64,000 nt of DNA from an uncultured Clostridia bacterium (GTDB lineage Bacteria; Bacillota; Clostridia; Oscillospirales; Acutalibacteraceae): assembly GCA_937896885.1 (NCBI GenBank), contig CALBNX010000014.1, forward strand, positions 5,061 to 69,060. Direction: 5' to 3'. The notes under the pieces were generated by a model that did no database searches, was not told where the DNA came from, and worked only from the letters and a program-made list of their open reading frames with translations. Positions 1,447-55,501 of the stretch are shown here, piece by piece. The position numbers and the translations under genes were made by a program. The first letter of the stretch is position 1, and each line of letters begins with the position of its first letter.

Positions 1447-1518
1447 ATTTAAAATGCCAATGGGCTGTCCTTCTGTGTCCGATGAATCTAATAACTAAAA
1501 CTTAATATTACACACCAA

Positions 1519-1555
1519 AGCCGATGAGGCACCCACCTCATCGGCTGATTTTTTG
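1519..1555 (+). terminator. Rho-independent terminator
   Basis: Stem AGCCGATGAGG / CCTCATCGGCT with a 6 nt loop, followed by a T-run (GATTTTTT). Confidence 0.75.
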
Positions 1556-1574
1556 TCGAAAAAAGCAAAATTAT

Positions 1575-1601
1575 TGTCACAAAACATTGAATATTTACGA
1601 T
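1575..1601 (+). promoter_or_regulatory. ECF-sigma-type promoter motif, copy 1 (TGTCAC-N17-CGAT)
   Basis: TGTCAC at 1575-1580, exactly 17 nt, then CGAT at 1598-1601 followed by TTATAT. The same motif and spacing recur at 7 other sites. Confidence 0.55.
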
Positions 1602-1607
1602 TTATAT

Positions 1608-1787
1608 TATTGAGGATGAACGATATAATCGTAAGATAGAACATTAATATGTGATAAACTGTTTTTTATTTTGATAAGATAATAAATACAAAAATAACAG
1701 TATACTTCCCATCTCAACCCATCTATCTGTATCATCCCACACCTCACCCCCCAGCCGATGGTTCACCCCATCGGCTTAACTTTTTTT
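1608..1787 (+). ncRNA. Candidate small RNA, copy 1 (CU-rich, terminator-ended)
   Basis: Lies between promoter motif copy 1 and the terminator AGCCGATGG..CCATCGGCT (1753-1776) plus T-run 1781-1787. No ORF of 60 aa or more. Contains the pyrimidine tract CTTCCCATCTCAACCCATCTATCTGTATCATCCCACACCTCACCCC. A paralogous copy lies at 23587-23758. Confidence 0.45.
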
Positions 1788-1917
1788 GTCGAAATTCTGA
1801 ATAATTATGTATTTTATATTGACTATTGTTTACCATTTTATAAAACTAAAACATGCATTATTACTCTACTCGAAGACAAATGAAATTACAATATTCAAAT
1901 TGAAAGAAGGACTTTTT

Positions 1918-2532
1918 ATGGAATTAAAACACTACACCAATATGTTCGTTATAACTTTTGTGTTGTTTTTTATTATTTCACTAATAATTGATTTGAAAAA
2001 AACATATACACATGAAAACATATCGTCAAAATTGATGACGCGAGAGAATGGAGAACAATATATTCTTGTGATGACATTTTCTTGGCAATTCAATAAACAA
2101 AAAAGGATTAGAGAATTGTTTAAGCAAAATAGCGTTTATACGAAGAATGATTTCAATTATGTTATAACTAGTTGCCTTAAAGACCAAAAGACAAGTTTGT
2201 TTACTCGTGATTTCGAATTTGGAGTTAAACCTATTGGGCAATCAAAATCCACAGATATAAAATATTTTATATATATTACAGGTAGGGATAATCTTACTGT
2301 TAATTTGAAAAACGCAATCAACTATAATGAGGTATATTCAGAAATATACAGAAGCAACATTGATAACAACGATAAAGAGTTATTACTTAAATATTTTAAC
2401 AGTCTTTCAAACGATGTTGCTTTCGACAAAGAAAATACCAACGCATTCCTTGAACTTCTTAGAAAATATGAGCCAGTATTTTCCTTTGCAGGCAGTATAA
2501 TTAGTATTATATCAGCTCTCCTTTCAATATAA
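1918..2532 (+). CDS. Hypothetical membrane-anchored protein
   Basis: An internal ATG at 1918 with RBS AAGAAGGA is preferred over the 1807 start. N-terminal TM helix FVITFVLFFIISLIIDL and a C-terminal hydrophobic tail. Confidence 0.5.
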   Translation: MELKHYTNMFVITFVLFFIISLIIDLKKTYTHENISSKLMTRENGEQYILVMTFSWQFNKQKRIRELFKQNSVYTKNDFNYVITSCLKDQKTSLFTRDFEFGVKPIGQSKSTDIKYFIYITGRDNLTVNLKNAINYNEVYSEIYRSNIDNNDKELLLKYFNSLSNDVAFDKENTNAFLELLRKYEPVFSFAGSIISIISALLSI

Positions 2533-2586
2533 TTATTAAAATCGAACTAAAAAGCATAACACTAATTAAAACTAATATTCTATACA

Positions 2587-2622
2587 AAACCGATGGTAAT
2601 TTACTATCGGTTTTATTTTTTT
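2587..2622 (+). terminator. Rho-independent terminator
   Basis: Stem AAACCGATGGTAA / TTACTATCGGTTT followed by TATTTTTTT. Confidence 0.7.
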
Positions 2623-2653
2623 GTCGCTTTTTTCTACTTTTTTGCATTTTATC

Positions 2654-2678
2654 TTACAATTGACTCTTAAAATTGTAA
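2654..2678 (+). promoter_or_regulatory. 9-7-9 palindromic site A (TTACAATTG-ACTCTTA-AAATTGTAA)
   Basis: Imperfect inverted arms around a 7 nt spacer. Belongs to a family of four sites (A-D). Lies 50 nt upstream of the 2728 start. Confidence 0.6.
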
Positions 2679-2727
2679 AATGTATTTGAGGTAAAATATA
2701 AATAAATATATATAGGGAGGATTGTTT

Positions 2728-5322: not shown

Positions 5323-5459
5323 ATCAATTTAGGTTATTATATAGTGAGTTTTGTTAAAAATCTTGCTGTTATAATAAAAAGTCACTCTGGACGGTACAAA
5401 AACATACAATTACACCATCTTTTTCGTTCAGAGTGGCGACTTTAAAGAAAGGCAATATT

Positions 5460-5579
5460 ATGAAGAAATATACACCACCTGATTTCGATATAACTATTTT
5501 TAAAATTGAAGATATTATCACTGCATCGTCACCTACCTTTGGAGACCAAGACCCCAATGGAGATGACTGGTGGGGATAA
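5460..5579 (+). CDS. Unannotated 39 aa small ORF (MKKYTPPDFDITIFKIEDIITASSPTFGDQDPNGDDWWG)
   Basis: ATG at 5460 preceded by AAAGAAAGG, stop TAA at 5577-5579, hairpin GCACCGATAAAATATTATCGGTGC downstream. The minus-strand track ORF 5369..5587 overlaps it and looks less plausible. Confidence 0.35.
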   Translation: MKKYTPPDFDITIFKIEDIITASSPTFGDQDPNGDDWWG

Positions 5580-5657: not shown

Positions 5658-5684
5658 TGTCACAAAAAGTCAAATTATTTCGAT
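5658..5684 (+). promoter_or_regulatory. ECF-sigma-type promoter motif, copy 2
   Basis: TGTCAC 5658-5663, 17 nt, CGAT 5681-5684, then TTATATAT. Points into site B and ORF 5846. Confidence 0.55.
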
Positions 5685-8435: not shown

Positions 8436-8505
8436 GAAAGCTAACAAAAATCCTCATAATTTGATAAAATAGGTCGTATCTTATCAAAATATGAGGTGTT
8501 TTTAT

Positions 8506-9414
8506 ATGGAGAACTTGAATTTATATGCAGAAGAGTGCATTTCTGTTATGAAATCTACAAAAAACATATCGGATTATAGTAGTTTGGCATACAGTTCTGA
8601 TTTGAATGATTTTATTGAATTTTGTGGTGGTGAGATTGACAACAATATTTTAGTCAAATATGTATCTTATCTATCACAGGACAGACATCTGTGTGATACT
8701 ACGATTAGCCGTAAATTGATAACGTTAAAAATGTTTTTTGAGTATCTATACAGTAAAAATCTCATAGAACAAAACTATTATCAGAACTGTCATTTCAAAT
8801 TTCGTAAGGAGCGAAAATTACCTAAAACTCTATCTAAAACAGAAACAGCCGAGCTTCTTAAAACTGCAACAGCAGAAAGAAACTCGGCTAAAAGTAATCC
8901 TGAAGTATTGCGAACGTCAAGGAATTTGGCACTTATCGATGTGCTTATAAGTACCGGCATAAGAATTGGTGAAGCATCAGCGATTTCATTGGATGATATT
9001 ATTGAATCTGAAAAGACTTTGCTTATTCATGGAAAAGGTCGTAAACAACGATTGATATACATTTCTTGTGATGAGACATGGAACAACCTTAACAAATGGT
9101 TGAATATCAGAAAGGAAATGGATATCCCTACTGATAAACTTTTTGTCAATCGTAGTGGTAATCAACTTGGCATTCATGGTATCGAATACATATACAAGCG
9201 AATTAAAGAAAACGCTGGCATCAATCCATCTTCTACCCCTCACTATTTGCGACACACCTTCGCAACAAACCTATTATCAAACGGTGCAGATTTGCGTTCA
9301 GTACAAGAGTTGTTGGGTCATAGCAGTGTTGCAATTACAGAAATCTATACCGAAATCACAACACAGAGAAAAAAGGAAGTATTAGATAAATATAACTTTA
9401 GGAATAGCTTATAG
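8506..9414 (+). CDS. Tyrosine site-specific recombinase, XerC/XerD-like
   Basis: N-terminal SAM-like core-binding domain. Catalytic signature: STGIRIGE (R), HGKGRKQR (K), HYLRHTFATNLL (HxxR), LLGHSSVAITEIYTE (H...Y). RBS GAGGTG before the ATG at 8506. Confidence 0.85.
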   Translation: MENLNLYAEECISVMKSTKNISDYSSLAYSSDLNDFIEFCGGEIDNNILVKYVSYLSQDRHLCDTTISRKLITLKMFFEYLYSKNLIEQNYYQNCHFKFRKERKLPKTLSKTETAELLKTATAERNSAKSNPEVLRTSRNLALIDVLISTGIRIGEASAISLDDIIESEKTLLIHGKGRKQRLIYISCDETWNNLNKWLNIRKEMDIPTDKLFVNRSGNQLGIHGIEYIYKRIKENAGINPSSTPHYLRHTFATNLLSNGADLRSVQELLGHSSVAITEIYTEITTQRKKEVLDKYNFRNSL

Positions 9415-11451: not shown

Positions 11452-11478
11452 TGTCACAAAATGATACATATTTTCGAT
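11452..11478 (+). promoter_or_regulatory. ECF-sigma-type promoter motif, copy 3
   Basis: TGTCAC 11452-11457, 17 nt, CGAT 11475-11478, then TAATAT. Upstream of the giant gene. Confidence 0.55.
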
Positions 11479-17958: not shown

Positions 17959-18213
17959 TTATAACAATTTGAATAATAGACTACTTGTTGCACCATTTGT
18001 TCTATATCTTTGTTCGGTTTCAAGCATTCGTTCTTTTCTTAAATCATTAAGAGCTCGTCTGACTGTTGATTGAGACATTTTCAAATCTTTCGAAATTGTG
18101 GCTATTGACGGCCAACATTCATTCTTTTCGTTGGCTCGGTCATATAGATACAGATATACAAGAACTGCTCGACTTGGTAATTCTGATTGATACACATGTT
18201 TTAATTTACCCAT
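17959..18213 (-). CDS. Helix-turn-helix DNA-binding protein (ICE regulatory or accessory)
   Basis: Winged-HTH-like segment SIATISKDLKMSQSTVRRALNDLRKERMLE. Overlaps the coupling-protein gene end. Confidence 0.6.
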   Translation of the reverse strand: MGKLKHVYQSELPSRAVLVYLYLYDRANEKNECWPSIATISKDLKMSQSTVRRALNDLRKERMLETEQRYRTNGATSSLLFKLL

Positions 18214-20071
18214 TTTTCATCGCCTCCGCTATTGTTCTATGTTTTGTTATGTGGTTTACTGGCACTATACGCAATTGTGTCTTATCTTTTCCATTTTTAT
18301 GTTGTGTCATCTCGTGTTCATCTGTATTAGATTCATTTGTTTCATGATGCAACCATTCAGGATGAAATTTAGCAACAATAGTGCCCATCAATTCTTTTCG
18401 TGAAGCATATTCGACTTTCCTATTTGCATTATCTGATACGATATATGGTTTGCTCTCATCAAATTCTATTCCCCATTCAAAGAATAACTTGAGTTTTGTT
18501 TTCATTGGATTAACACCTGTTTTCATTACAATAAACTGTCCTTTAGGTAGTGATTTGAGTTCATCAGGAGTCATCAATGGTCTTTCAATCATCTGCAAAC
18601 TCTGTGATGGGTCATTCTTACCACGAGATACTGAACCAGACATTACCGTTCTGCTACCTAATGCTTTAGATAATTCTTCGGCAGAACTACTATTAGGTGC
18701 AAATCCACCGAACAAGGTTATCTGTGTATTATCTACAATAATATCAGCACCTTCTTTTCCATAGTTCTTTTCAAGTTGTCTAAAAGATTGAATAATAGGT
18801 ATAATCTGTAATCTACGGGAACGAGAAGCACTAAACATCATTTCTGCAGACTCAATCTTTGGTAGCGTACCAAACTCATCACAGAAAAATACACATCTGT
18901 TTTTGAGTTTACCACCTTGTTCATCGGCTACTGCAAGTATTTCACGATATAACTGTTGGATAATAAGAGATACCATAAAGAATGTGTTAGGATTTTCTTC
19001 AGGCATATTGATAAAGATTGCACACTTTTCTGAGCAGAACTTTTCGGCATCTATTTCGGTATCAAAACACAATAATTGCTCTAACTCTGAATCAAGAAAA
19101 GTATTCAGTCTTGATAATGCTGTACTCATAACACTCGCCATTGTATTTTCGGAAGTAGTGAGAGCCGCACCTGCGAACCACTTTGCTTTATGGTCATCAG
19201 GTAACATAGATATCAAGTTTTGAAATTGATTTTTACCTTTCTCTTGTGTTGGTTCAAGAAGTTCTTGTATGACTTTGAATACGGACACAATATGCCTTTT
19301 GCTTGGCTCACAAAATTCTGCTACAAGCAATATTGTTGCAGTAAGGATACCTTCTGCCGCATCGTAGAAATACGCATTTTGTCCGAATGAAGCGGCATCC
19401 ATACCTGATAAGATAATTGTTTTGGATATAATCTTGGCATATTTCTCTGCTTGTGCTTTGTAAGAGAGTTTATCCGGATTAGCGATATACAAGTCCATAT
19501 ACTTGTTAACGAGGTGCAAGAGGTTGTTTCCGTTTGAACGAGTGGGGTTTCTTAAATCAATTACTGCTACACTATAGCCATAGTCTTTTGCTATGTAGCC
19601 ATAGTTTCGCATAATATCTCCTTTGGTATCAGTTGACAGAAAAGACATACCCGAAGCCAAAGCATATTCTATACAAGGATATAACCAATAAGCAGTTTTA
19701 CCGACACCTGCCGCACCAATCATCAATACATGAACATCTCCTGTATCAACCAATGCAGTTGTGTTATGTTTTCCACCTTTGCAACCTACAACAATTCCTT
19801 GTGGTAATGGTTGTTCTTTCTTTTTTACTGATGCAGTTGGATTTTTGCCTTTTAATGCTTGTTTACGCCATTTTTTCGGAGTGAATAGAACATATTTGTA
19901 AGTCTTCAGTAACTCGGATTTAGTTGCCCATCGAGCAGTACCGTGTTGTCCGTCACCGACAGTTTTGCTCTTAATATTATTCAGGTTGTATATGTGAGTA
20001 ATAAGAGATATACCACCGAGAATACAGAACATTACCCCAAAGGCAATAATCAAAGTTGTAACGCTTGACAT
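18206..20071 (-). CDS. Type IV coupling protein (VirD4/TraG family)
   Basis: N-terminal TM helix, Walker A GAAGVGKT, Walker B-like VFFCDEFGTLP, ~620 aa. Confidence 0.85.
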   Translation of the reverse strand: MSSVTTLIIAFGVMFCILGGISLITHIYNLNNIKSKTVGDGQHGTARWATKSELLKTYKYVLFTPKKWRKQALKGKNPTASVKKKEQPLPQGIVVGCKGGKHNTTALVDTGDVHVLMIGAAGVGKTAYWLYPCIEYALASGMSFLSTDTKGDIMRNYGYIAKDYGYSVAVIDLRNPTRSNGNNLLHLVNKYMDLYIANPDKLSYKAQAEKYAKIISKTIILSGMDAASFGQNAYFYDAAEGILTATILLVAEFCEPSKRHIVSVFKVIQELLEPTQEKGKNQFQNLISMLPDDHKAKWFAGAALTTSENTMASVMSTALSRLNTFLDSELEQLLCFDTEIDAEKFCSEKCAIFINMPEENPNTFFMVSLIIQQLYREILAVADEQGGKLKNRCVFFCDEFGTLPKIESAEMMFSASRSRRLQIIPIIQSFRQLEKNYGKEGADIIVDNTQITLFGGFAPNSSSAEELSKALGSRTVMSGSVSRGKNDPSQSLQMIERPLMTPDELKSLPKGQFIVMKTGVNPMKTKLKLFFEWGIEFDESKPYIVSDNANRKVEYASRKELMGTIVAKFHPEWLHHETNESNTDEHEMTQHKNGKDKTQLRIVPVNHITKHRTIAEAMKNG

Positions 20072-20967
20072 TGTTTTTTTACCTCACTTTCTTTAGAAAA
20101 TACTAAATCCTCATTCCAATCTTTGTGCTTTGGAACGAGGATTTTTGATTTAATATTTAATTCATTTAGTTTGTTTTGAATTCGTTTGTTAGCTTCTAGT
20201 CCAGGATTATCATTATCAAAGCATAGATAAGTGAATTGGATATTAGGATTGTCTTTAAGACATTGAAAAAGCACCCTGTCCGATACAGAACAAGATGCCG
20301 CATAACTGTGTTTTTTCCAAGCTTTTTTATGCATTGAGATAAAGGATAGCAAATCAATTGGTGCTTCGAATAGAAATAGATATTTACTTTTTCCATGCCA
20401 ATGAAAACTGTATTCTGGAATACTGCCACTAGCATTTCCTTTGTATGTACTACCTTCACCAATCCCTCTCATATGAGCATGACGGGGTATACCGTTCTCA
20501 TCATAGCCGAGAAATACAACACTGTGATAATCTTTTGATTCATAGAGCATTTGCTCATGAAAAAATGAGTATATGATTTCTTTATCTATTCCTCGTTTAA
20601 CGATTAAGTAGTTAATCATTCGGCTCATATCATCGCTTTTAGGCGGAGGTATAAATTCTTTGCTTTTGTTTGTTTTCTTTACTTGCTGTGTATGGGTTAT
20701 CGCACAACAACTATTGCCAAGTAAGTATTCCATAGCACCTTGAAAAGACTTGTTATAGAACTTATGAACAAAATCAATCGTATCCCCGCCAACTCTTTCA
20801 TATTGATGGAACCATAAGTTATCTCTTATGGTTATTTTTTGTGAGTTGCAGAACCACTCATATTCTGAACCAGATTTCTTAATTTGCTCACCTTGGCTTT
20901 GCAGAAGACTAACAATATCCGTTTGTCTCGCTTGTCGTTTTTGTTCTTCTGTAAAATGAATATACAT
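20050..20967 (-). CDS. DUF3991/Toprim domain protein (primase-like conjugation protein)
   Basis: Start at MYIHFTEEQ with RBS GGAGGTGGA. Toprim acidic motifs LFLFEAPIDLLS and LCFDNDNPG. Confidence 0.7.
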   Translation of the reverse strand: MYIHFTEEQKRQARQTDIVSLLQSQGEQIKKSGSEYEWFCNSQKITIRDNLWFHQYERVGGDTIDFVHKFYNKSFQGAMEYLLGNSCCAITHTQQVKKTNKSKEFIPPPKSDDMSRMINYLIVKRGIDKEIIYSFFHEQMLYESKDYHSVVFLGYDENGIPRHAHMRGIGEGSTYKGNASGSIPEYSFHWHGKSKYLFLFEAPIDLLSFISMHKKAWKKHSYAASCSVSDRVLFQCLKDNPNIQFTYLCFDNDNPGLEANKRIQNKLNELNIKSKILVPKHKDWNEDLVFSKESEVKKQCQALQL

Positions 20968-21052
20968 TATTCCACCTCCATTAATTATAGTTTTATCTAA
21001 TATCAATAAATTTTTTACCGATATAAAAAATTTATTGAATAACATAAAAAAA

Positions 21053-21079
21053 TGTCACAAAAGCACTTATAGTTTCGAT
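21053..21079 (+). promoter_or_regulatory. ECF-sigma-type promoter motif, copy 4
   Basis: TGTCAC 21053-21058, 17 nt, CGAT 21076-21079, then ATATAAT. Upstream of the three-gene plus-strand insert. Confidence 0.55.
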
Positions 21080-23819: not shown

Positions 23820-23846
23820 TGTCACAAAATGATGTAAAAAAACGAT
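23820..23846 (+). promoter_or_regulatory. ECF-sigma-type promoter motif, copy 6
   Basis: TGTCAC 23820-23825, 17 nt, CGAT 23843-23846, then TTATTATAT. Lies 32 nt upstream of ORF 23878. Confidence 0.55.
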
Positions 23847-23877: not shown

Positions 23878-24195
23878 ATGAATAAAAAAGAACTATATGA
23901 ACTAAAAAAAGATTTTGAATTTGATTGTTATTTACATGATGACATTTCATATCTCTTTATGAAATATGGCTTCTATGTCTGTATGATATTTTTTGCACTT
24001 AATGCTATTTTCGGTATATCGTCCATTGTTACCTATATTATTATTGGAGATGTTTTTGCTTTAATATTTTCAACTTTAATATCTGCACTTCTTTCTTTGC
24101 TTGGTGCTTTTGTACACATTGTAGGATTGGTAATTTTTAATATTAAATTCAGACAAAAATATCATTACTATAAATATGAAATTTTCTGGCCTTGA
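23878..24195 (+). CDS. Small membrane protein
   Basis: RBS GAGGTGA. Two long TM helices (FYVCMIFFALNAIFGISSIVTYIIIG; LISALLSLLGAFVHIVGLVIF). The 3' end overlaps the convergent relaxase gene. Confidence 0.5.
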   Translation: MNKKELYELKKDFEFDCYLHDDISYLFMKYGFYVCMIFFALNAIFGISSIVTYIIIGDVFALIFSTLISALLSLLGAFVHIVGLVIFNIKFRQKYHYYKYEIFWP

Positions 24196-25574
24196 GCAAT
24201 TTGCTTTTCTTCAATCTTTTGTTGAAGTTTCTTTTCGATGTGTTGATTGATATTATCGTTTTTCTCAATTTCATATTGTATGATTTGAGAAATTCGAGCA
24301 AACAATCTTAACGAGGAAAGAGTAATTGAAGTCGCTGAAACCATGTTATTTACATAACCTTTATGCGATGTCACTTTTGAAGTGGCATCGCTTTTTTGTG
24401 CTCGGACATTATTCTTTATCTCTTTTGTGGTATCTTCAACTACTTCTTGTTGTTCATCTTCTTGTGAGATAAGTTTGAATACTTCATTTACAACTGCATT
24501 ACGAATACTTTTGAATTCTTTGTTTTGTGATAATGGAATCTTCTTTGGCAAATTATCCATATATGTAAGAATAACATTGTTCCTTTGCTCATACCACAGC
24601 GCATACAAAGCAGAGACTTTTTCGTCCTTTGCAATTTCATCAACAATAGCATCAACAATATTTTTAGTTGATTTAGGAAGATAACCATATACCTTTCTAC
24701 CTGTATAATCACCAAGCTCGTTAGTAAGTTTTTTGAATAACATTTCAACTGTTTTATTTCCATAATTACTTTTACTAATTTGCTCACTAATATCGTTGAT
24801 TATTTCTCTACTGCGTTCTTTAATATTGTCACGATATATAGTTTGTTTTGAATAAACTTGTAACAAATCTTGCCTGAATATATCTCTCGCAAATGCAGAC
24901 TTGAGTTTAAGAATTCCTTGTTCTGTCATATACGGTTGCTTGCCTACAGAATAAGCTACCACATGAACATGGGGATGATGACCTTCGTTATGGAATGCCG
25001 CATACCATCTTAAATCTTCAATAGGAATTTTCATGCTCTCTGCTATTGCTGGAACATTAGAACGGATTAACTTTTGCCAAGCATAAGAGTTATCATATCC
25101 TAATCGTTCTGCATCTTCTCTTTTTAAAGATATAATATCAGTCCAGACTATGCCTTCGTGATTAGCAACCGTTTCTGAAACTTTTGATAGATTAATTGGT
25201 ACATTATCATCAGTAAACAAGCCGTGAGAACCTAGTTTTTCAACTCTTGGTCTTTTAGCAATGTACTCAACATACTTTTTTCTTTGATTTATGACTTCAG
25301 GATTATCTTCAATAGCACGAGCTATGAATTCAGAAGCATTTTTTCTTGTCGGTGAAGACAAATAATCTTTGTATTCAAAGTTTGAAGCTGTATCGTTCAA
25401 GTCTTTCAATATTTCTTTAATCAATCTTTGCTGTTCAACAGTTGCAGGCAAGTGTTCCCAAGAGTCATCTTTCTTTTCTACACCATCTCTTGTAGCTATA
25501 TAGTTGATTAAATTTTTTGAATGTTTAACTTTACCCGATTTGATGTATCTGCATTTTAATATTATCTTAGCCAA
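24168..25574 (-). CDS. Relaxase (MobL/MOBP-like mobilisation nuclease)
   Basis: TTG start with RBS AAAGGAAA. N-terminus AKIILKCRYIKSGK, histidine cluster FHNEGHHPHVHVVAYS. Position next to the candidate oriT and an RHH-like accessory gene. Confidence 0.7.
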   Translation of the reverse strand: MAKIILKCRYIKSGKVKHSKNLINYIATRDGVEKKDDSWEHLPATVEQQRLIKEILKDLNDTASNFEYKDYLSSPTRKNASEFIARAIEDNPEVINQRKKYVEYIAKRPRVEKLGSHGLFTDDNVPINLSKVSETVANHEGIVWTDIISLKREDAERLGYDNSYAWQKLIRSNVPAIAESMKIPIEDLRWYAAFHNEGHHPHVHVVAYSVGKQPYMTEQGILKLKSAFARDIFRQDLLQVYSKQTIYRDNIKERSREIINDISEQISKSNYGNKTVEMLFKKLTNELGDYTGRKVYGYLPKSTKNIVDAIVDEIAKDEKVSALYALWYEQRNNVILTYMDNLPKKIPLSQNKEFKSIRNAVVNEVFKLISQEDEQQEVVEDTTKEIKNNVRAQKSDATSKVTSHKGYVNNMVSATSITLSSLRLFARISQIIQYEIEKNDNINQHIEKKLQQKIEEKQIAQGQKISYL

Positions 25575-45267: not shown

Positions 45268-48200
45268 ATGGCAAGCAAAGAAATGAAGATTCATATTGAT
45301 TTACTAAAACGCAGAGGCAACTTTTTTACCAATATAGGCTTATTAATTTCAATAAATAATGGAGATGACTATTATAATATAATAAAAAAGTATTTTACAG
45401 ATTCTAATCCAATTAATAGAAAATCTTTTTTTCACAATAATTATAATGATGTATTAGAATATACCCCTACTGGACAAACCGCTAACTTATTAAAAATGTT
45501 ATTATGGAGTAGTACTATTATATCTTTCTATAAAGAAGAAATTGTAAATTTTGTTTCCATAAAGAAAAAATTTGATTATTATGTTTTAACCGGAGATTAT
45601 GAAAACGCATTAAAAGAATTGGATTACATAGAAAACAATATAAGCTTTTCTATGTGGTCACTCAAAAATAGAATAATGCTTGCTAACTTAAGAGGCGACA
45701 GAGTTGATGAATATATTAATTCCTTGAATTTAAATAAATATGCAACATCACATGCTAACTTATATGCTCATTTTACAAAAGTTGAGTGTAATGTTAATGA
45801 ATATATTAAAAATATAGAACATATTACTAATACTTTGCCAAAAGATTATGTAAATTGTTTTTTATATCTATATGGTGATGTTGATGATATAGAAATTGAA
45901 AACTATTCTAATGTTTTAGCATATTGTAATGCTTATTCAATTATTGATAGCTATCTTTGCATTAAAAGAATTCTACATAGTTATTTATCAACAGAAGAGT
46001 TTGAAAACAAGCTAATACAAAAAAGCATAGATATCTTATCATGCATAGAGAACGATGATGAACTATTACTTTTTATATCACACAACATCCCTAAAGATAT
46101 GAATATGTCTTCTTCCTGTGAAAGATTATTTGCTGATTTTAGTCATAAGAATTATGAAAAAATCTTTATAAATCGAAATAACTATTTACTAGATATCTCA
46201 GCATGTAGTCTCATAAAAATTATTATTATCACGATATCTGGTATTCTTTCTAATAAAATTGATAATAATTTTTCAGAAAAAAGCATTTTGGATTCCATTA
46301 TTCTTTCTTTATACAGAGTTTTAAAGTCTGATAACCTATATGATTTTCGTATTGGATTGTCAAAAATGGAAAGTTATAATAGAGTATTACGTTGGTTTGA
46401 TATATCAAATCCCTTAGGTCTCTTTTGGAAGAATTGTTTAAGTTATATAGAGGAGAATCCGATAGAAAAATGCTTTTCTATCGATGATAAAATACTTTAT
46501 AATAAGATTGTAGATTTACAAGTTCCGCCAATCTTTTTCGAATCGCTTTATCATTATACAAAAATGGATTTTGATTATTCTGATATTAAAAAAGATTTTA
46601 CTGATAATGAGAATAATATCTTTATAATATCATTGCTTTACATACAATATTATGTCGCGCTAGGCAAAAAGGACTACTATTTTGCTACTGATATTTTCTC
46701 AAAGGCTATTGCTAATTTTACTCCATTAATATATAGATTTAGAGTTGATGAAGTTTGTAAACATGTTATAAATAATATTACTATAAAAGAATCAGTAACA
46801 ATAAGTGATGTTATTTTTTCCTTCAATGTGAATGATTTAAAACCATACAAACTTATAGCTTATAAGAATTTTTTGGATGAAAACAACATTGTAAAGCCTT
46901 TAGAGATTATTAATTTGCCTATAGATAAGCAGCTTAAAATATATTTTCTTAAAGAAATTTGCACGATTGACACAATGACATGTCTCTATGTTACATTTCC
47001 TAATAGTAATGAGATTGAAAACCATAGAATAGAAATCTGCAAATTCTTACTTGAGAATGATCCTTCAAATAAAGGCTCATATGGTAAAGAAATATCAGAA
47101 ATATTAAAAGAACAAGAAGTAAGAAAATTAAACAAAACTATTGATAAGTCTAAATTAAGTATAGATTACCAATATATTTTAGATAAAACATATGAACAAT
47201 TCTTAGATTTAACTAAAATGTATTATGATACTAGACCAGATGCAATAGAGTATGTTTCTTTTTCGTCACCAATGATTATCAGCACTGAACCACAAAGTTG
47301 GCGTTTTATTGCTTTGTCTCGCGATATTGTACTCGAAAATATGTATAAAGTATATGCCGCAGAGTTCTGTTTTGGAAGCAGGGGCCTTGATACATACCTT
47401 AGTACACGAGTACGACATGGAACTTTTGAAAACACAATAAAGAAAGTGTTTATAGAAAATAATCTATATAACACTGAAAACAATTTTTTTAAATCTATGT
47501 TTTCAAAAGAGCATGTTTCACAAAAAATTACGGAGGTTATAAAAGACTTTAGAGAACAATTACTTAATAGGATTCATGTTTTGACAAACACAACATTTAA
47601 AGTATTTATTGAAAATGAGATAAAAGGAGCTCTTTTCGATTATTATATGGATACAAAAGATGTAGCAATAATATACAAACAATTGAATTTAAAAGAATCA
47701 TTTTCAGTTCTTGATTTTATAAACATTATTTCGGATACAATAGTAATAAAAACAAACGAATATCTTGCGTTTATTAGAGACGCTGTTTTAGAAAATCTTA
47801 AAAGCGAGATTATTGACTTGTTAGATAATTTAAATGCCGATGTAGAAATCTACTGCTTGGAAGCTTCAGCACTTTCTAATATTAGAAATAACATATCTAG
47901 AAGCAAAACAAACATTCAAAACAAAATAGATGATATAAAAAATTGGTTTTACCTATCCGAATCAATTCCTATGGAAAACTATACAATTGACAAATTGATT
48001 GATGTGTTAAACAAGAATTTATGTCAGCAGTTTGATGATTTTAATTTAATTGATTTAAAAACTAACAACTCTATTTCAAAAGATTTTGTAGGTGAATCTT
48101 TCGTTTATCTTTACGATATACTGCACATTCTTTTGTCAAATGCAATTATTCATTCAAAATTTGAAAATTTAAATGAATTGAAAATTATTTTGGAGACAAC

Positions 48201-48486
48201 AGAAATTAGTGATGAATATGTTTCATTCTGTATAAAAAATAATTATTCTGAAGCATGTAGTCGTGAGCAAGTGGAAGAATCAATTAGAAAAATTAATAAT
48301 ATTTATGTAAATAGAGAATACACAAAAGTAGATACCCACAAAGAAGGCGGAATGGGCCAAATAAAAGTTTTAGATATTTTATATAATATTTTAAATGTCG
48401 GGAATACTTTTGAGGCAGTATGTGATTCTGATAATTATGAAATAAAGTTTACTATTTCAAAAAAAGGAGTAATTGCCTGTGATTAA
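45268..48486 (+). CDS. dtcA: Detocs DtcA-like sensor: large helical-repeat N-terminal region plus a histidine-kinase-type GHKL ATPase
   Basis: RBS AAGGAAGGA. 1072 aa with no TM helix or signal peptide. The N-terminal ~650 aa are Tyr/Leu/Asn-rich and helical-repeat-like. Candidate phospho-His in LSTRVRHGTFEN (His codon 47416-47418). N-box ILLSNAIIHS and G-box HKEGGMGQIKV at the C-terminus. Confidence 0.7.
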   Translation: MASKEMKIHIDLLKRRGNFFTNIGLLISINNGDDYYNIIKKYFTDSNPINRKSFFHNNYNDVLEYTPTGQTANLLKMLLWSSTIISFYKEEIVNFVSIKKKFDYYVLTGDYENALKELDYIENNISFSMWSLKNRIMLANLRGDRVDEYINSLNLNKYATSHANLYAHFTKVECNVNEYIKNIEHITNTLPKDYVNCFLYLYGDVDDIEIENYSNVLAYCNAYSIIDSYLCIKRILHSYLSTEEFENKLIQKSIDILSCIENDDELLLFISHNIPKDMNMSSSCERLFADFSHKNYEKIFINRNNYLLDISACSLIKIIIITISGILSNKIDNNFSEKSILDSIILSLYRVLKSDNLYDFRIGLSKMESYNRVLRWFDISNPLGLFWKNCLSYIEENPIEKCFSIDDKILYNKIVDLQVPPIFFESLYHYTKMDFDYSDIKKDFTDNENNIFIISLLYIQYYVALGKKDYYFATDIFSKAIANFTPLIYRFRVDEVCKHVINNITIKESVTISDVIFSFNVNDLKPYKLIAYKNFLDENNIVKPLEIINLPIDKQLKIYFLKEICTIDTMTCLYVTFPNSNEIENHRIEICKFLLENDPSNKGSYGKEISEILKEQEVRKLNKTIDKSKLSIDYQYILDKTYEQFLDLTKMYYDTRPDAIEYVSFSSPMIISTEPQSWRFIALSRDIVLENMYKVYAAEFCFGSRGLDTYLSTRVRHGTFENTIKKVFIENNLYNTENNFFKSMFSKEHVSQKITEVIKDFREQLLNRIHVLTNTTFKVFIENEIKGALFDYYMDTKDVAIIYKQLNLKESFSVLDFINIISDTIVIKTNEYLAFIRDAVLENLKSEIIDLLDNLNADVEIYCLEASALSNIRNNISRSKTNIQNKIDDIKNWFYLSESIPMENYTIDKLIDVLNKNLCQQFDDFNLIDLKTNNSISKDFVGESFVYLYDILHILLSNAIIHSKFENLNELKIILETTEISDEYVSFCIKNNYSEACSREQVEESIRKINNIYVNREYTKVDTHKEGGMGQIKVLDILYNILNVGNTFEAVCDSDNYEIKFTISKKGVIACD

Positions 48487-48922
48487 TAAGATTTTAGTTG
48501 TAGAAGATGATGCATTAAAAGGTCGTCAAATAGTTAATTTCACAAAATCAATTAACAACAATATAATAATCACTCAAAAAGGTGCATTAAATTCTGGACT
48601 TATAGAGTTAACTAAAAATGAATATGATTTGGTTATTCTCGATATGAGTTTACCGACTTTTGACAACAATGAATCAGAACATTTCCAGCCTTATGGTGGA
48701 TTGTTGTTTTTAGATGAGGTGAAAAGAAAGAAATATAAAGTACCGGTTGTGATAGTGACTCAATATGCCTCTTTTGGAGAAGGAGAAGGCGAAACAACGC
48801 TTGAAGAAATTGATTTAAATTGTAAAAACAAATATCCAAATTTCAAAGAAATAATCTACTATTTAGATGATGATTGGCAAGAGAAGTTAAAGACATACAT
48901 TGTAGGTGAAAATGATGATTAG
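48473..48922 (+). CDS. dtcB: Detocs DtcB-like stand-alone receiver (REC) protein
   Basis: Overlaps the dtcA end. The likely start is GTG 48479, 9 nt after AAGGAG. REC motifs ILVVEDD, DLVILDMSLP and PVVIVTQ. No output domain. Confidence 0.75.
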   Translation: MPVINKILVVEDDALKGRQIVNFTKSINNNIIITQKGALNSGLIELTKNEYDLVILDMSLPTFDNNESEHFQPYGGLLFLDEVKRKKYKVPVVIVTQYASFGEGEGETTLEEIDLNCKNKYPNFKEIIYYLDDDWQEKLKTYIVGENDD

Positions 48923-50117
48923 AATTCTTTTTATTGATGATAATATTGAACGAACACAGGAAATTGCTAGTTGGTTAGATGAGTATCAAATAGAAAATGA
49001 TAGCGAATTCGCTGTAACAAAAGATGATGCATTAAGAAAACTAAGCTGTAACCAGTACGACTTGGTAATCGTTGATATTGTTCTACCCGAAAGTATGAAA
49101 ACACTAGGATTTTCAAAATCTGCAGGTTTGGATATTGTTAAAGAGATATGTTTTAGCAGAACCGTTATCCGTCCATTGTTTTTATTGGGTATAACTTCAA
49201 ATCAAGAAAGCTATGATGCTGTAAAAAACGAGTTTGACAGCAGTTTCATACCATTATCTATTTGGGAAATAGGTGATGATAATTGGAAAACAAAATTAAT
49301 TGCGAAAATTAAATATCTTTCAAAATTAACGAATGAGTATAAGCCTATTAATAAAAATAAAGTAGATGTAGCAATTATTACAGCTGTCGATGATGAGTAT
49401 CATGCACTTGACGCTTTGCCAGTATGTTGGAGAGATGTAATAATACCATGTGACCCTCTTATATATTCAAGAGGCATATTAACCAGTGGAAAGATTATTT
49501 TGAGAGTAAAACTGCCAGAAATGGGAATGAGTGCTGCTTCACATGTTACAACTAGAATTATAGAGTTGTTTGAACCTAAATCAGTCATAATGACTGGAAT
49601 TTGTGGTGGAAATAAAGGCGAAGTAGATTTGGGGGATGTTGTTGTAGCAGAGAGAACATGGGACTATGGTTCAGGGAAGATAAAAAAAGGAGAAGATGGG
49701 AAAATAACTTTTTCTGCCTTGCCAAACCAAATTGGTATTGATACGATATTGCGAAGTGATATTGAACGAAATTCAAAAATAATAAGCAAGATATGTGACG
49801 AATGGAATACGACGAAAAATGATGATAAAAGTTCTTCGATAAAAATAGGTGCTATAACAACAGGTTCTGCTGTTGTGGCAAATAGAGATATTATCGATGC
49901 AATTATTGAACCTCAATACAGAAAGGTATTGGGTATAGATATGGAAACATATGGCGTGTATTTTGCATGCGAAAAGACAGGGAGAAACATAAAATTTGTT
50001 TCAATTAAGGCAGTTTCTGATTTGGCTGATGTAGAAAAAGACGATTCGTATCACAATTTTTGTTCATATGTAAGTGCAAAATTTGCTTTTAAATTAGTTG
50101 AACTGGATATTTTATAA
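48906..50117 (+). CDS. dtcC: Detocs DtcC-like effector: receiver domain fused to a PNP_UDP_1 (nucleoside phosphorylase / MTA-nucleosidase-like) domain
   Basis: Overlaps the dtcB end. REC motifs ILFIDDN, DLVIVDIVLP and LGITSN. Phosphorylase-fold motifs VDVAIITAVDDEYHAL, MTGICGG, GDVVVAE, GIDMETYGV and IKAVSDLAD. Confidence 0.8.
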   Translation: MKMMIRILFIDDNIERTQEIASWLDEYQIENDSEFAVTKDDALRKLSCNQYDLVIVDIVLPESMKTLGFSKSAGLDIVKEICFSRTVIRPLFLLGITSNQESYDAVKNEFDSSFIPLSIWEIGDDNWKTKLIAKIKYLSKLTNEYKPINKNKVDVAIITAVDDEYHALDALPVCWRDVIIPCDPLIYSRGILTSGKIILRVKLPEMGMSAASHVTTRIIELFEPKSVIMTGICGGNKGEVDLGDVVVAERTWDYGSGKIKKGEDGKITFSALPNQIGIDTILRSDIERNSKIISKICDEWNTTKNDDKSSSIKIGAITTGSAVVANRDIIDAIIEPQYRKVLGIDMETYGVYFACEKTGRNIKFVSIKAVSDLADVEKDDSYHNFCSYVSAKFAFKLVELDIL

Positions 50118-50185
50118 TACATAACAAATTATAAGGTATTTAATAACTTAACTATAACATAGACTTTAATAAAATTTTATATCAA

Positions 50186-50236
50186 AACAAAAATCCGAAA
50201 CCGTTGCCAATTGGCAATAGTTTCGGATTTTTTGTT
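50186..50236. terminator. Bidirectional terminator between convergent operons
   Basis: Stem AAATCCGAAAC / GTTTCGGATTT with the inner palindrome TTGCCAATTGGCAA. A-run on the left and T-run on the right. Confidence 0.75.
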
Positions 50237-50375
50237 TTGGTTGGAGCATAGGACGATTCCATTTAATATCTTGATTATAAAGTAAGCATTCATCACAGCT
50301 TAACTAATCCCAATATTATTCACTTGTTTATCGTTTACTAATTCTCACAAAAAAGTCAAGAAATGCATAGTAATA

Positions 50376-51347
50376 TTAAAAGAAAATCATATGATTATCT
50401 TTTAATTGTTGCAATATAGACTCAATATCATCTCTTACTTTTCTTTCATATATAGATGTATTATTATCTATTTGTTTAAAGTTCAAATTATATAGTTGCT
50501 CTTTGTAATCTTCATTCAAGTCAAAATATCTATGTAGTACACAACTCTTAGCATTAAACATATCATCAATATGTGTGTTACCATCATCCACGCGATATAA
50601 CACAAATACATCAGTTATAGCTTTAACCTTCATACCATGGTTTACCGCAGAGTTAAACTCACTCACAGCATTAATCAATTGTGTTCCCTTTGATGTATTA
50701 CAATCAATTAGTACAGCACATCCTTTGCGGTGTTCAAAGAGTTCCCAAGAACCTTCTATATTCACCTTATAGCATTCTTTAGTAGAACTATCTATTGTTG
50801 TTGCTCTAGAATCATCGTTCTTATCTTTTACCACAACAAGTTTTGCACCGTATTTCATAGCCACAGATTGAGCTAATTCCACGTTACCACCTTTAGGTAC
50901 AACAATTACAGCAGGATTTGTTTTTCTTGTTTTATTTATTAAAGTAACCATTAATTCTGTCATTTCATTTAAATCGTCAGAATCTGTTGAAGCCTCCATT
51001 GTATCCACATAATATCTACTATTAATATCTTTGCTGTAATTAATATTAGTTGGGAAAGCCATTGTATATCGAGCGAGAAGTAATATTAATCTTTCAAAAG
51101 AATTCTCTGCCTTTTTCATTTTTGACCGTTTGGCTATATTTTTCATTGATTTGTTAATTTCTTTTGCCGTTTTATCAGTAAAACCCCAATCAAATAAAAC
51201 CTTCTCTATTAAATTTTCATCATGATTGCCGTAAATAAACTTTGAATACCATTTATTGTTTCTAGGAACATTTGCAAATGCTGCTATTATATCTCTTATT
51301 GAAAATATTCCTAAAACAACAAGAATTACCCATTCTGACCAATTCAT
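50376..51347 (-). CDS. Membrane-anchored phosphoribosyltransferase-fold (PRTase-like) protein
   Basis: N-terminal TM helix WSEWVILVVLGIFSI. Type I PRTase-like core AVIVVPKGGNVELAQSVAMKYGAKLVVV and a degenerate PRPP loop AVLIDCNTSKGTQL. Confidence 0.6.
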   Translation of the reverse strand: MNWSEWVILVVLGIFSIRDIIAAFANVPRNNKWYSKFIYGNHDENLIEKVLFDWGFTDKTAKEINKSMKNIAKRSKMKKAENSFERLILLLARYTMAFPTNINYSKDINSRYYVDTMEASTDSDDLNEMTELMVTLINKTRKTNPAVIVVPKGGNVELAQSVAMKYGAKLVVVKDKNDDSRATTIDSSTKECYKVNIEGSWELFEHRKGCAVLIDCNTSKGTQLINAVSEFNSAVNHGMKVKAITDVFVLYRVDDGNTHIDDMFNAKSCVLHRYFDLNEDYKEQLYNLNFKQIDNNTSIYERKVRDDIESILQQLKDNHMIFF

Positions 51348-51351
51348 ACAT

Positions 51352-52095
51352 TTATCCTTTCACATCGTTTTGCTTTAACAAATATTCCAACAAGTATTCA
51401 TCTGAATCAAACGAGTAACAACCGTTTTGTTTTATATAATCAGTTATTTCTTTAACTTTAGTATCTTCAACGTATTTCCACACCGAATCATTACACCAAT
51501 TTACAACTCTATCAACACATGTATATTTATTATCTATAAATTTTTTATAAAATTCATCTTCAGGATTGATGTATAAACCTCCTGTTAAAAAAAGTTTTAC
51601 AAAACTAGTATCATTGATTATCTCGCAGTATTCGTTCATACTAATAAACGGTAAAATAGGCTTCAGTACTACAGCTGTTTTTACTCCTGTGTCTTTCAAA
51701 TTTTTCAACAAATCAATTCTATATTTATAATCAGCAGTACCTGGTTCGATTTCATTTATACAACTTTTAGTTGTGAATCCGACACCTAATTTTACGAAAC
51801 CATTTCTAATTTTCGAGTTTAATTTTAATATATCATTTATTGAAGAATCCGCAATTTTGCCCTTACACGAAAAACTAAAAATTATTTTTTTGCTATCATT
51901 ATATTTTTTTAAGATTTTTTCACAAAAAGTCCAATCAATTTCAAAATCCGAATCACAAGTTGGATAAAAAGCAAGCACATCATCATCAAAAAATTCTTCA
52001 TTAATTTTCGGATATTTATAATTATCCCATTTTGAAAAACAATACATACAATTTTTCTCACATTTTTTATTAGAATGAATAAAAACTCGTTTCAT
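51352..52095 (-). CDS. Small radical SAM enzyme
   Basis: CX3CX2C cluster at the N-terminus (KKCEKNCMYCFSKW). 247 aa. Lies 4 nt upstream of the PRTase-like gene, so the two are probably co-transcribed. Confidence 0.65.
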   Translation of the reverse strand: MKRVFIHSNKKCEKNCMYCFSKWDNYKYPKINEEFFDDDVLAFYPTCDSDFEIDWTFCEKILKKYNDSKKIIFSFSCKGKIADSSINDILKLNSKIRNGFVKLGVGFTTKSCINEIEPGTADYKYRIDLLKNLKDTGVKTAVVLKPILPFISMNEYCEIINDTSFVKLFLTGGLYINPEDEFYKKFIDNKYTCVDRVVNWCNDSVWKYVEDTKVKEITDYIKQNGCYSFDSDEYLLEYLLKQNDVKG

Positions 52096-52311
52096 AATAA
52101 TCTCCAGTCAAAAATATTTATTTGCAGTTCAAAAAATAAAATACAAATGCGCCACATTAGCGTATCATATATGATATGGTTGTTTTAATAGTATTTTTAT
52201 CTTTCGATCACTTTTTTTATTATATTTTGTTTTTTATTATTATAGTATTTTTTAGTCAAATATTTTTAGTTAATAAAACTATTTTATACAAGTCAAGTGT
52301 CTAAATTTATA

Positions 52312-52338
52312 ATCGGAATGAAGTCATATTTTGTGACA
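52312..52338 (-). promoter_or_regulatory. ECF-sigma-type promoter motif, copy 7 (minus strand)
   Basis: The plus strand reads ATCG(52312-52315)-N17-GTGACA(52333-52338). The reverse complement is TGTCACAAAATATGACTTCATTCCGATTATAAAT. It points at the radical SAM gene. Confidence 0.5.
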
Positions 52339-52815
52339 TTTTTTTGTATTTTACTAAAGTATATTCAATAACAAATATATGCTAATACTGATTTATGTGT
52401 TATAACACAAGTATTAGATATGAAACATTACCATACGATGAAACAATAACATTAGAACATCTTACACAATTTTTCCATTTTTAAAAGCCGAATATAAAAA
52501 ATTATAGGAATTGTTTCTATTTATGAGGATGTTGAAAAATGGTTACGATAAAAAGAATTCTTTAGAATTCGAATTAAACTTATTGAAATATATATGGAAA
52601 CTGACGCCTTATCATCTGTACCCGACTTTTTCTTTATACGTTTCTGTGTGTTCGCATAAAAGGGATTAAACATCTGAAATGATTGTGTATATGATAATGG
52701 GTATCGTTCGAAATACGAACCAAAATATGCTTTTAAAAATTACATTGCTGAGCTTGTCAATGATTGAAACTAGTTATCCACATACTATCAGAACTTATTT
52801 GATTAATTCTAGCGA

Positions 52816-52871
52816 TTAGACCGCTTATGGACCACTTGAGGTGAAAACTCGATGGAAATATTAGAATTATT
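52816..52871 (+). repeat. 56 bp direct repeat, copy 1
   Basis: TTAGACCGCTTATGGACCACTTGAGGTGAAAACTCGATGGAAATATTAGAATTATT has 3 mismatches against 54907-54962. Contains an SD (GAGGTGA) plus ATG. Confidence 0.8.
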
Positions 52872-52957
52872 AAAATGGTATGAACTTAAACCCTGTCTTT
52901 TTAATGGAATAGTGGACACTACATAGAAAACATATTACTCAAATGTTCTTTTTTATA

Positions 52958-54832: not shown

Positions 54833-54859
54833 ATCGTTTTTTGAAATAGAAATGTGACA
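54833..54859 (-). promoter_or_regulatory. ECF-sigma-type promoter motif, copy 8 (minus strand)
   Basis: The plus strand reads ATCG(54833-54836)-N17-GTGACA(54854-54859). The reverse complement is TGTCACATTTCTATTTCAAAAAACGATTTATATT. It points at the 540 aa gene. Confidence 0.5.
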
Positions 54860-55323: not shown

Positions 55324-55398
55324 TGGTGACCCGGACGGGAATCGAACCCGTGTTACCGCCGTGAAAGGGCGGTGTCTTAACCGCTTGACCACCGGGCC
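55324..55398 (-). tRNA. tRNA-Glu (anticodon UUC)
   Basis: The reverse complement GGCCCGGTGGTCAAGCGGTTAAGACACCGCCCTTTCACGGCGGTAACACGGGTTCGATTCCCGTCCGGGTCACCA folds as a cloverleaf. Anticodon loop CTTTCAC, encoded CCA. Confidence 0.95.
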
Positions 55399-55424
55399 AT
55401 TTTTAAGGGACTTGTTCAGTCCCT

Positions 55425-55501
55425 TGGTAGCGGCAACGGGACTTGAACCTGTGACCTTCCGGGTATGAACCGGACGCTCTAGCCAACTAAGCTATGCCGC
55501 C
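55425..55501 (-). tRNA. tRNA-Met (anticodon CAU, elongator-like)
   Basis: The reverse complement is GGCGGCATAGCTTAGTTGGCTAGAGCGTCCGGTTCATACCCGGAAGGTCACAGGTTCAAGTCCCGTTGCCGCTACCA. Anticodon stem TCCGG/CCGGA, loop TTCATAC. A lysidine-modified Ile2 identity cannot be excluded from sequence alone. Confidence 0.85.

Follow-up and report, generated by a model that had tools for sequence, protein, structure and literature searches.

What does a small radical S-adenosylmethionine (SAM) enzyme do in the company of a phosphoribosyltransferase (PRTase)-like protein, in a two-gene cassette that stands beside the defense system Detocs? The cassette is encoded in a 64,000-nucleotide stretch of contig CALBNX010000014.1 (positions 5,061 to 69,060; assembly GCA_937896885.1) from an uncultured Clostridia bacterium of the Acutalibacteraceae, and this whole stretch is referred to here as the window. 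An earlier reading, made from the DNA letters and translated open reading frames (ORFs) and called here the sequence-only reading, had proposed the cassette as an immune system. From the protein families involved, the pair probably acts on nucleotides, and we see about an even chance that the cassette is a nucleotide-directed defense-type system, which would be analogous but not homologous to the Ophion system of Pseudomonas aeruginosa. The conservation described below shows the catalytic motifs of both core enzymes to be under strong selection.

The operon and its two enzymes

Both ORFs are present as the sequence-only reading had described them, on the minus strand and 4 nt apart. A GGAG ribosome-binding site (RBS) is positioned 7 nt 5′ of the radical SAM gene's ATG, and the AAAGGA RBS of the PRTase-like gene lies within the 3′ end of the radical SAM gene, a location that fits translational coupling of the two genes. 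By this layout the two genes form a single operon, with a repeated alternative-promoter-like motif at its start and a strong terminator at its end. The terminator hairpin sits between the stop of the PRTase-like gene (50376) and the stop of dtcC (50117), and its minimum free energy is −33.4 kcal/mol, compared with −12.7 ± 2.9 for shuffled sequences (z = −7.2). No Rfam family at E ≤ 1, and no riboswitch or known RNA, was found in the 216-nt leader, which contains a weak hairpin with a T-run at 52150-52162. The AT-rich stretch between the radical SAM gene and the next gene upstream (52096-52957, 860 nt) has no ORF of at least 60 amino acids (aa) and no Rfam match.

The radical SAM cluster motif CEKNCMYCF (C12, C16, and C19; CX3CX2C) stands almost at the N-terminus of the 247-aa enzyme, as had been noted, and the Cys triad is kept in 85 of 86 family clusters, the lone exception being a fragment. 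A profile search of 5.8 billion proteins returned these 86 clusters at E ≤ 1e-35; after a sharp gap, the next matches are generic radical SAM proteins at E 4e-6. Two further residues are conserved to a similar degree, Y18 (85/86 clusters) and C47 within a YPxCD motif (86/86), and are candidates for a hydrogen-atom-donor Cys and Tyr relay of the spore photoproduct lyase (SPL) type.

Similarity of the enzyme to described families is low. The Pfam Radical_SAM model gives 15.2 bits (E 0.025), under its gathering score of 29.5, and the NCBIfam models Rv2578c (E 1e-9, 37.7 bits against a cut-off of 430) and PA0069 (E 1e-7, 30.9 bits against a cut-off of 360) match partially, within residues 60-162. 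A search of the PDB with the family profile recovered SPL structures at E 5.6e-5 over residues 77-228 only, and some family members have faint matches to PF20903 (SPL) or bear the JGI label "DNA repair photolyase". The AlphaFold model (predicted local distance difference test score, pLDDT, of 88.3) has a partial-barrel radical SAM fold for which Foldseek returned LipA, HydE, SPL, BioB, and PFL-AE at E 6e-6 to 1e-3, the first three at E of about 1e-5; comparison with predicted viral structures gave generic radical SAM folds only. SPASM and twitch domains are absent. The best sequence relatives are the SPL/COG1533 proteins (SplB, Rv2578c, PA0069), with which the enzyme has in common a CX3CXYC motif with Tyr before the last Cys. 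On these comparisons it is a short SPL-type radical SAM protein with its cluster at the extreme N-terminus, differing from SPL in being about 100 residues shorter, in scoring far below the curated cut-offs, and in forming a discrete family of its own that is coupled to a PRTase-fold gene.

The enzyme had been likened both to SplB and to viperin, and the first likeness holds while the second extends over about 25 residues around the cluster motif. All matches to viperin models fall within residues 4-32 at E 0.008-0.015: the two PADLOC models of prokaryotic viperins (pVips) reach E 0.0084 and 0.014 over residues 4-28, and the NCBIfam viperin model E 0.015 over residues 6-32. As viperin was also not found among the best 50 Foldseek matches of the model, membership of the viperins was rejected. 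What pVips share with the enzyme is that they are small radical SAM proteins of defense islands, thought to act on nucleotides and sometimes paired with a nucleotide-metabolism gene.

The second gene product, of 323 aa, had been read as a type I PRTase fold behind one transmembrane helix. Its predicted structure (pLDDT 75.8, low for residues 1-80) confirms the fold, placing it closest to orotate PRTase: Foldseek found 145 matches in the PDB at E ≤ 1e-3, the best 50 of which are all PRTases (orotate or adenine; one generic "phosphoribosyltransferase"), with a best E of 7e-11 and a target TM-score of up to 0.81. In these models the relationship is visible by structure comparison only. Pfam, including Pribosyltran, gave no match, the NCBIfam match to an orotate PRTase-like model is weak (E 0.0023), and the family profile retrieved nothing from the PDB at E ≤ 1, even when built from 111 sequences.

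Like the radical SAM family, the PRTase-like family is small and has sharp limits. Among 1.84 billion sequences searched, it has 271 representatives at E ≤ 1e-3 and 124 at E ≤ 1e-30, and most of the 271 align over the full length, N-terminal part included. Residue conservation was assessed in 111 diverse representatives with 23-44% identity. K152 and N155, in the sequence PKGGN, are invariant, and G154, K174, E198, G199, D215, C216, N217, and G221 are each kept in at least 90%. By position, PKGGN, K174, and D215-G221 would be the pyrophosphate (PPi) loop, the flexible-loop lysine, and the phosphoribosyl pyrophosphate (PRPP) loop, all at the places expected from type I PRTases (orotate and adenine PRTases, ShosT, PsyrT, and the retron type III proteins), with which the protein also has the core Rossmann-like fold in common. 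The PRPP loop, V-L-I-D215-C216-N-T-S-K-G-T, departs from the canonical motif of two adjacent acidic residues and a T/S-rich loop with Gly, the second acidic residue being replaced by Cys in at least 90% of the 111 representatives. The sequence-only reading had called this loop (VLIDCNTSKGT) degenerate; because D-C-N-x-S-x-G is conserved across the family, it is a conserved variant and not the product of decay. A distant family member, P0239 (647 aa), retains both acidic residues in its loop V-I-D-D-S-C-S-R-G-S and has a C-terminal extension of about 320 aa that by eye resembles a medium-chain dehydrogenase/reductase. This is the only fusion of a PRTase-like protein that was seen; no fusion of the radical SAM and PRTase-like genes was found.

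Two additions further set the protein apart from type I PRTases, a hydrophobic helix at the N-terminus and some 90 residues of helical structure. The 19-residue Kyte-Doolittle mean reaches 2.34 over residues 7-25, and of 129 family representatives 91% have an N-terminus hydrophobic enough to exceed the threshold on this scale, making an N-terminal membrane anchor likely. The segment includes a conserved Arg (R18) and an adjacent acidic residue, and because of this conserved R18 the transmembrane helix of the sequence-only reading is likely but unproven.

Linkage of the pair and its accessory genes

Related loci were collected by exact-protein look-ups and by a scan of 185,579 species genomes. 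The 27 loci obtained fall into 21 distinct places, to which the window adds a 22nd. In all 20 distinct loci that have both, the radical SAM gene directly adjoins the PRTase-like gene and runs in the same direction, and their linkage persists to 31-35% identity despite varying gene order, which answers the question of co-occurrence in other genomes in favor of the pair. As to the other two loci, the contig of L021 is cut upstream of the PRTase-like gene, and in L005 (5659-7266) the place beside the radical SAM gene, the most distant member of its family (35-36% identity), is taken by an HD phosphohydrolase gene (NCBIfam PRK10119-like, E 7e-27) and not by a PRTase-like gene.

A gene for a PF01503 (PRA-PH/MazG) protein of about 130 aa adjoins the pair in 13 of the 22 loci. 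Its EExxE...D...D metal motif is invariant, and among solved structures the protein is closest to 3nl9 (E 1e-28) and Deinococcus DR2231 (E 5e-9), the latter of which we take to be a dUTP-specific pyrophosphatase (dUTPase). A second accessory gene, present in 9 or 10 of the 22 loci, encodes a Peptidase_C39_2-like (papain-like) protein of about 190 aa with invariant Cys, His, and Asp. The two are fused into one protein of 308 aa in L015 (10987-11913), which suggests that they act together. From their families, the MazG and HD accessory genes point to nucleotide phosphate chemistry.

Only the two core genes are found in the window, L001-L003, L020, and L027, and probably in L011, whose contig ends just past the pair. 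The window, L001-L003, and L011 make up a clade with at least 67% identity, in which the MazG and C39-like genes appear to be dispensable; a tblastn search of the window for their remnants found none. The window is therefore the minimal two-gene form of a cassette that usually has three to four genes.

Nine of the 185,579 species genomes gave hits, all of them Clostridia, from Flavonifractor, Clostridium, Ruminococcus, Dorea, Lachnospiraceae, and Acetivibrio. No relatives of the cassette were found in IMG/VR, and no locus is viral. The sequence-only reading had named consistent embedding in a biosynthetic pathway as an outcome that would speak against its proposal; no cofactor, nucleoside-antibiotic, ribosomally synthesized and post-translationally modified peptide (RiPP), or other multi-enzyme biosynthetic cluster was seen among the 22 loci. 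From this distribution the cassette is a rare, unnamed, horizontally spread core pair, mainly of Clostridia.

Genomic neighborhood

The cassette had been placed between two defense candidates, and both neighbors bear this out. On one side is a complete Detocs operon, with matches to PDC-M60A, PDC-M60B, and PDC-M60C at E 1.8e-43, 7.7e-31, and 1.4e-90, whose effector is a PNP_UDP_1 phosphorylase. The cassette was considered as a part of Detocs and this was rejected, as it lies on the opposite strand, is convergent with the operon, and is separated from it by the strong terminator; in the other annotated loci the pair occurs without a PNP_UDP_1 response-regulator gene. On the other side is a gene whose 540-aa product matches PDC-S60 at its N-terminus (E 5.5e-27), together with DUF4062, and has a weak nucleoside 2-deoxyribosyltransferase-like match; its C-terminal 360 aa or so have no match. 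The cassette is in a low-GC stretch, with 27-31% GC versus 36-39% in the adjoining regions on both sides, and the two tRNA genes at the edge of this island may be its integration site.

The sequence-only reading had further proposed an island-wide promoter of the extracytoplasmic function (ECF) type about 220 nt upstream of the cassette. There is indeed a repeated motif, TGTCACA-N16-CGAT, with seven exact copies in the window versus 0.04 expected from shuffles, all of them intergenic and facing a downstream gene. One copy precedes the cassette and another the PDC-S60-like gene, while five are in a conjugative element (1-25 kb), before genes of unknown function and that for a dockerin-bearing surface protein. 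The motif thus also precedes non-defense genes, and no copy was found upstream of Detocs. The SigX-type ECF promoter of Bacillus subtilis reads TGTAAC-N17-CGAC, and by resemblance in its −35/−10 spacing the motif may be an alternative-sigma (ECF-type) promoter; a Pfam scan of 23 window ORFs detected no sigma factor (Sigma70_r2/r4). The seven copies would fit a regulon that a single alternative sigma factor controls across the conjugative element and the defense island. The motif is absent from the 27 related loci and so belongs to this genome, not to the cassette. The element at window positions 1-25600 is itself low in GC, conjugative or mobilizable, and contains several ORFs without a family match. 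The features of the window are listed in Table 1.

Table 1. Positions of the cassette, its signals, and other features in the window (T4SS, type IV secretion system)
Feature	Position	Strand	Remarks
PRTase-fold ORF, 323 aa	50376-51347	−	Hydrophobic N-terminal helix, helical region, orotate-PRTase-like domain from about residue 95
Radical SAM ORF, 247 aa	51352-52095	−	SPL/COG1533-like; cluster motif at residues 12-19
AT-rich 5′ leader	52096-52311	−	Between motif and radical SAM ATG
Promoter-like motif TGTCACA-N16-CGAT	52312-52338	−	216 nt 5′ of radical SAM ATG
Putative bidirectional terminator hairpin	50183-50239		T-runs on both strands; common to the convergent Detocs operon
Detocs operon	45268-50117	+	Convergent on the cassette
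PDC-S60-like gene, 540 aa	52958-54580	−
Other motif copy	54833-54859	−
Other motif copies	1575-1601, 5658-5684, 11452-11478, 21053-21079, 23820-23846	+	In conjugative element
tRNA-Glu(TTC), tRNA-Met(CAT)	55324-55501	−	Edge of low-GC island with Detocs, cassette, and PDC-S60-like gene
Integrase	8491-9414		Conjugative element
Cell-surface protein, 1767 aa	11602-16905		Peptidoglycan-binding, glycoside-hydrolase-like, and dockerin domains
T4SS coupling protein	18206-20071		Conjugative element
DUF3991/Toprim primase	20050-21045		Conjugative element
MobL relaxase	24168-25574		Conjugative element

Strong defense neighbors were recorded in at least 7 and at most 10 of the 22 loci, a raw count from a small sample with no matched background. 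By this count the association with defense genes, where the sequence-only reading had looked for enrichment, is moderate over the family as a whole and complete in the window's clade, where all three members (the window, L001, and L011) have defense neighbors. In addition to Detocs and the PDC-S60-like gene of the window, the neighbors are HerA in L001 (E 2e-167), Avs4 in L011 (E 9.5e-213), Lamassu LmuB in L014 (E 2e-96), AbiH and a PARIS/PD-T4-4-like ATPase in L004, a KAP NTPase with AAA_15/21 and RloB in L023, and AbiEi in L022. Matches to PDC-M07A, PDC-S34, and SoFic were also obtained in proteins of the related loci, without being mapped to individual loci. In L006-L009 the cassette is cargo of an integrative element with RepA_N, Rep, FtsK, Xis, and Int genes.

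Several loci have particular surroundings. In L004 another candidate system lies just upstream of the cassette (1192-5460), composed of HATPase_c/DUF4325, C2185-like_N with Radical_SAM, and the AAA_15/21 ATPase that gives the PARIS/PD-T4-4-like matches, and AbiH is downstream of the cassette. L001 (11922-14272) and L002, the closest two-gene relatives, have a 353-aa protein of unknown family and a Trypsin_2-like protease after the pair, and a giant RHS/YD-repeat toxin-like protein and HerA before it; none of these flanking genes is present in the window. Toxin-antitoxin genes are near L005. L025 is near rplS and the trigger factor gene, L020 is near rpsF-ssb, and L010 adjoins capsule genes. 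In L027 (9009-13395), on an environmental contig, the pair is between folA (dihydrofolate reductase) and thyA (thymidylate synthase) and beside an AAA_28 kinase-like gene; it is here alone that a connection with thymidylate metabolism is hinted at.

Ophion and the competing explanations

The sequence-only reading did not recognize the pairing as a named system, and no paper was found that describes this radical SAM and PRTase-like family. The pairing as such does have a precedent in Ophion, a validated three-gene system of P. aeruginosa that blocks jumbo phages and consists of the radical SAM protein OpnA, the PHP phosphoesterase OpnB, and the PRTase OpnC; mutants of OpnA or OpnC abolish defense, and OpnB is partly needed (bioRxiv 10.1101/2025.09.30.679545). 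The cassette resembles Ophion in its parts list, as each combines in one small operon a radical SAM enzyme and a PRTase with a phosphoesterase, the third gene of the cassette being MazG-type, or HD in one locus. By analogy, the essential radical SAM and PRTase proteins and the partly required phosphoesterase parallel its core and accessory genes, and both systems adjoin other defense systems. They differ in that no PHP gene was found in the window or the related loci, where the third gene is MazG/PRA-PH, or HD in L005, and is missing from the window; in that OpnC has a canonical GDDVLVTGST loop and lacks the N-terminal hydrophobic helix; in their hosts, Gammaproteobacteria for Ophion and Clostridia for the cassette; and in the extra papain-like peptidase in about half of the cassette's relatives.

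The OpnA and OpnC sequences, taken from Table S1 of the preprint, were compared with family profiles of 12, 13, and 111 sequences. With OpnA, hhalign aligned only the 12 columns of the cluster motif with the radical SAM family (probability 1.6%), and with OpnC the probabilities for the PRTase-like family were 0.17% and 0.35%; as the templates were single sequences, a very remote homology is possible. Homology to Ophion was rejected, as there is no hhalign signal beyond the cluster motif.

Two other comparisons are mechanistic analogies for which no homology was found. In histidine biosynthesis the PRTase HisG is followed by the PRA-PH-family pyrophosphohydrolase HisE, and the radical SAM enzyme OxsB and the HD phosphohydrolase OxsA make the antiviral nucleoside oxetanocin A, a combination that recalls the radical SAM and HD pair of L005. 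HisG is a type IV PRTase, and OxsB is a large B12-dependent radical SAM enzyme.

If the cassette is a nucleotide-directed defense-type system, the PRTase-fold enzyme would act on a 5-phosphoribosyl compound, forming or cleaving an N-glycosidic bond by means of the retained PPi loop PKGGN, K174, and the modified PRPP loop D-C-N-x-S-x-G. The radical SAM enzyme would alter the base or sugar of the same nucleotide, through a 5′-deoxyadenosyl radical and hydrogen-atom abstraction, and in most relatives the MazG-type nucleoside triphosphate (NTP) pyrophosphatase and the papain-like Cys peptidase would assist. The outcome would be an antimetabolite or nucleotide depletion, either of which would keep an invading phage or mobile element from replicating. 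Hints that the substrate may be a pyrimidine nucleotide come from the orotate-PRTase-like fold, the relation of the radical SAM enzyme to a thymine-dimer lyase, the DR2231-like partner, and the folA/thyA locus of L027. A fuller proposal is that the pair is the core of a new Firmicutes anti-phage system, evolved apart from Ophion or related to it beyond recognition, whose product, made at the membrane by radical SAM chemistry, would be a new nucleotide antimetabolite, perhaps a pyrimidine analogue, and which optional MazG and papain-like modules would tune or trigger. We put this forward tentatively, its chances being real but short of even.

A number of observations weigh against a defense role as set out here. 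The association with defense genes across the family is moderate, and at least half of the loci have ordinary neighbors (transporters, carbohydrate enzymes, ribosomal genes, and capsule genes). PADLOC-DB v2 gives neither protein a match beyond the cluster motif; for the 323-aa protein no PADLOC family was found at E ≤ 1, the ShosT, PsyrT, and retron models included, and the earlier comparison of this protein with PRTases of retron and toxin-antitoxin defense systems is not upheld. The failure to detect homology with Ophion counts on the same side. As the PRPP loop lacks the second acidic residue, use of PRPP is not assured. The proposed mechanism leaves the role of the membrane anchor unexplained, and the pyrimidine hint is weak, being drawn from distant similarities and one locus.

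In another explanation, the cassette would be no immune system but a small unit of metabolism or biosynthesis that makes or salvages a modified nucleobase or nucleotide. Its product could be a cofactor-like compound, a nucleoside antimetabolite directed against other bacteria, or a cell-envelope precursor made at the membrane. Many loci are amid ordinary genes (L025, L020, L010, and L027), the membrane anchor would suit an envelope-linked product, and a radical SAM enzyme works alongside a PRTase and a phosphatase in pathways to deazapurine nucleosides such as toyocamycin. However, the unit is self-contained, with two to four genes and no conserved transporter, resistance gene, regulator, or further pathway enzyme. 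It is also very rare and patchy (9 of about 185,000 species genomes), and many of its loci are on mobile elements or in defense islands, including 3/3 in the window's clade. Taking the possible products jointly, we consider this explanation unlikely, and it is the main rival of the nucleotide-directed defense reading.

The kinship of the radical SAM enzyme with SPL and the COG1533 "DNA repair photolyase" proteins, and its Clostridia hosts, could be taken to mean that the system is directed at DNA: the SPL-like enzyme would repair or modify DNA bases and the PRTase-fold partner would bind DNA or a nucleotide, for self-marking or for repair of spore or ultraviolet damage. Yet SPL has about 90 residues ahead of its cluster that are absent here, where the cluster starts at residue 12, and the SPL match covers about 150 residues only (E 5.6e-5). 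The strict coupling to a PRTase-fold gene, usually with an NTP pyrophosphatase, points to free nucleotides instead, and the family is far too rare for a general repair function. We judge a DNA-directed role improbable.

A similarly low probability attaches to a toxin-antitoxin or addiction module, in which the PRTase-fold protein would be a toxin of the nucleotide pool, as are ShosT and PsyrT, and the radical SAM enzyme would control or neutralize it. PRTase toxins are known in defense, the cassette is carried on integrative elements, and L005 has toxin-antitoxin genes nearby, but no similarity to ShosT, PsyrT, or the retron PRTases was detected with hidden Markov models. An antitoxin role would be unusual for a radical SAM enzyme whose catalytic motif is fully conserved, and accessory MazG and peptidase genes are not typical of such modules. 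Maturation of a RiPP, by a radical SAM maturase and a C39-type leader peptidase, is suggested by the Peptidase_C39_2-like gene with its intact triad in about half of the loci but is very improbable, as no conserved small ORF was found upstream of the cassette across 17 loci, the radical SAM enzyme has only 247 aa and neither SPASM nor twitch domain, the peptidase is absent from the window and the other two- and three-gene loci, and PRTase and MazG partners do not fit the logic of a RiPP pathway.

For the biology of this genome, the repeated TGTCACA-N16-CGAT motif suggests that one dedicated regulator acts on several of its accessory and defense genes. For the families, viperins are the point of reference: these radical SAM enzymes produce antiviral nucleotides, connect the immunity of bacteria with that of humans, and have been a source of new chain-terminator chemistry. 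Should the nucleotide-directed defense reading hold, the pair could lead to a modified nucleotide not seen before and to a reaction new to SPL-type radical SAM enzymes, among whose relatives the function of Rv2578c and PA0069 is still not known, in a compact two-gene version that would be easy to test. The defense islands of gut and rumen Clostridia would then hold a second, unrelated pairing of a radical SAM enzyme with a PRTase, and this two-enzyme logic would have been used more than once in immunity.

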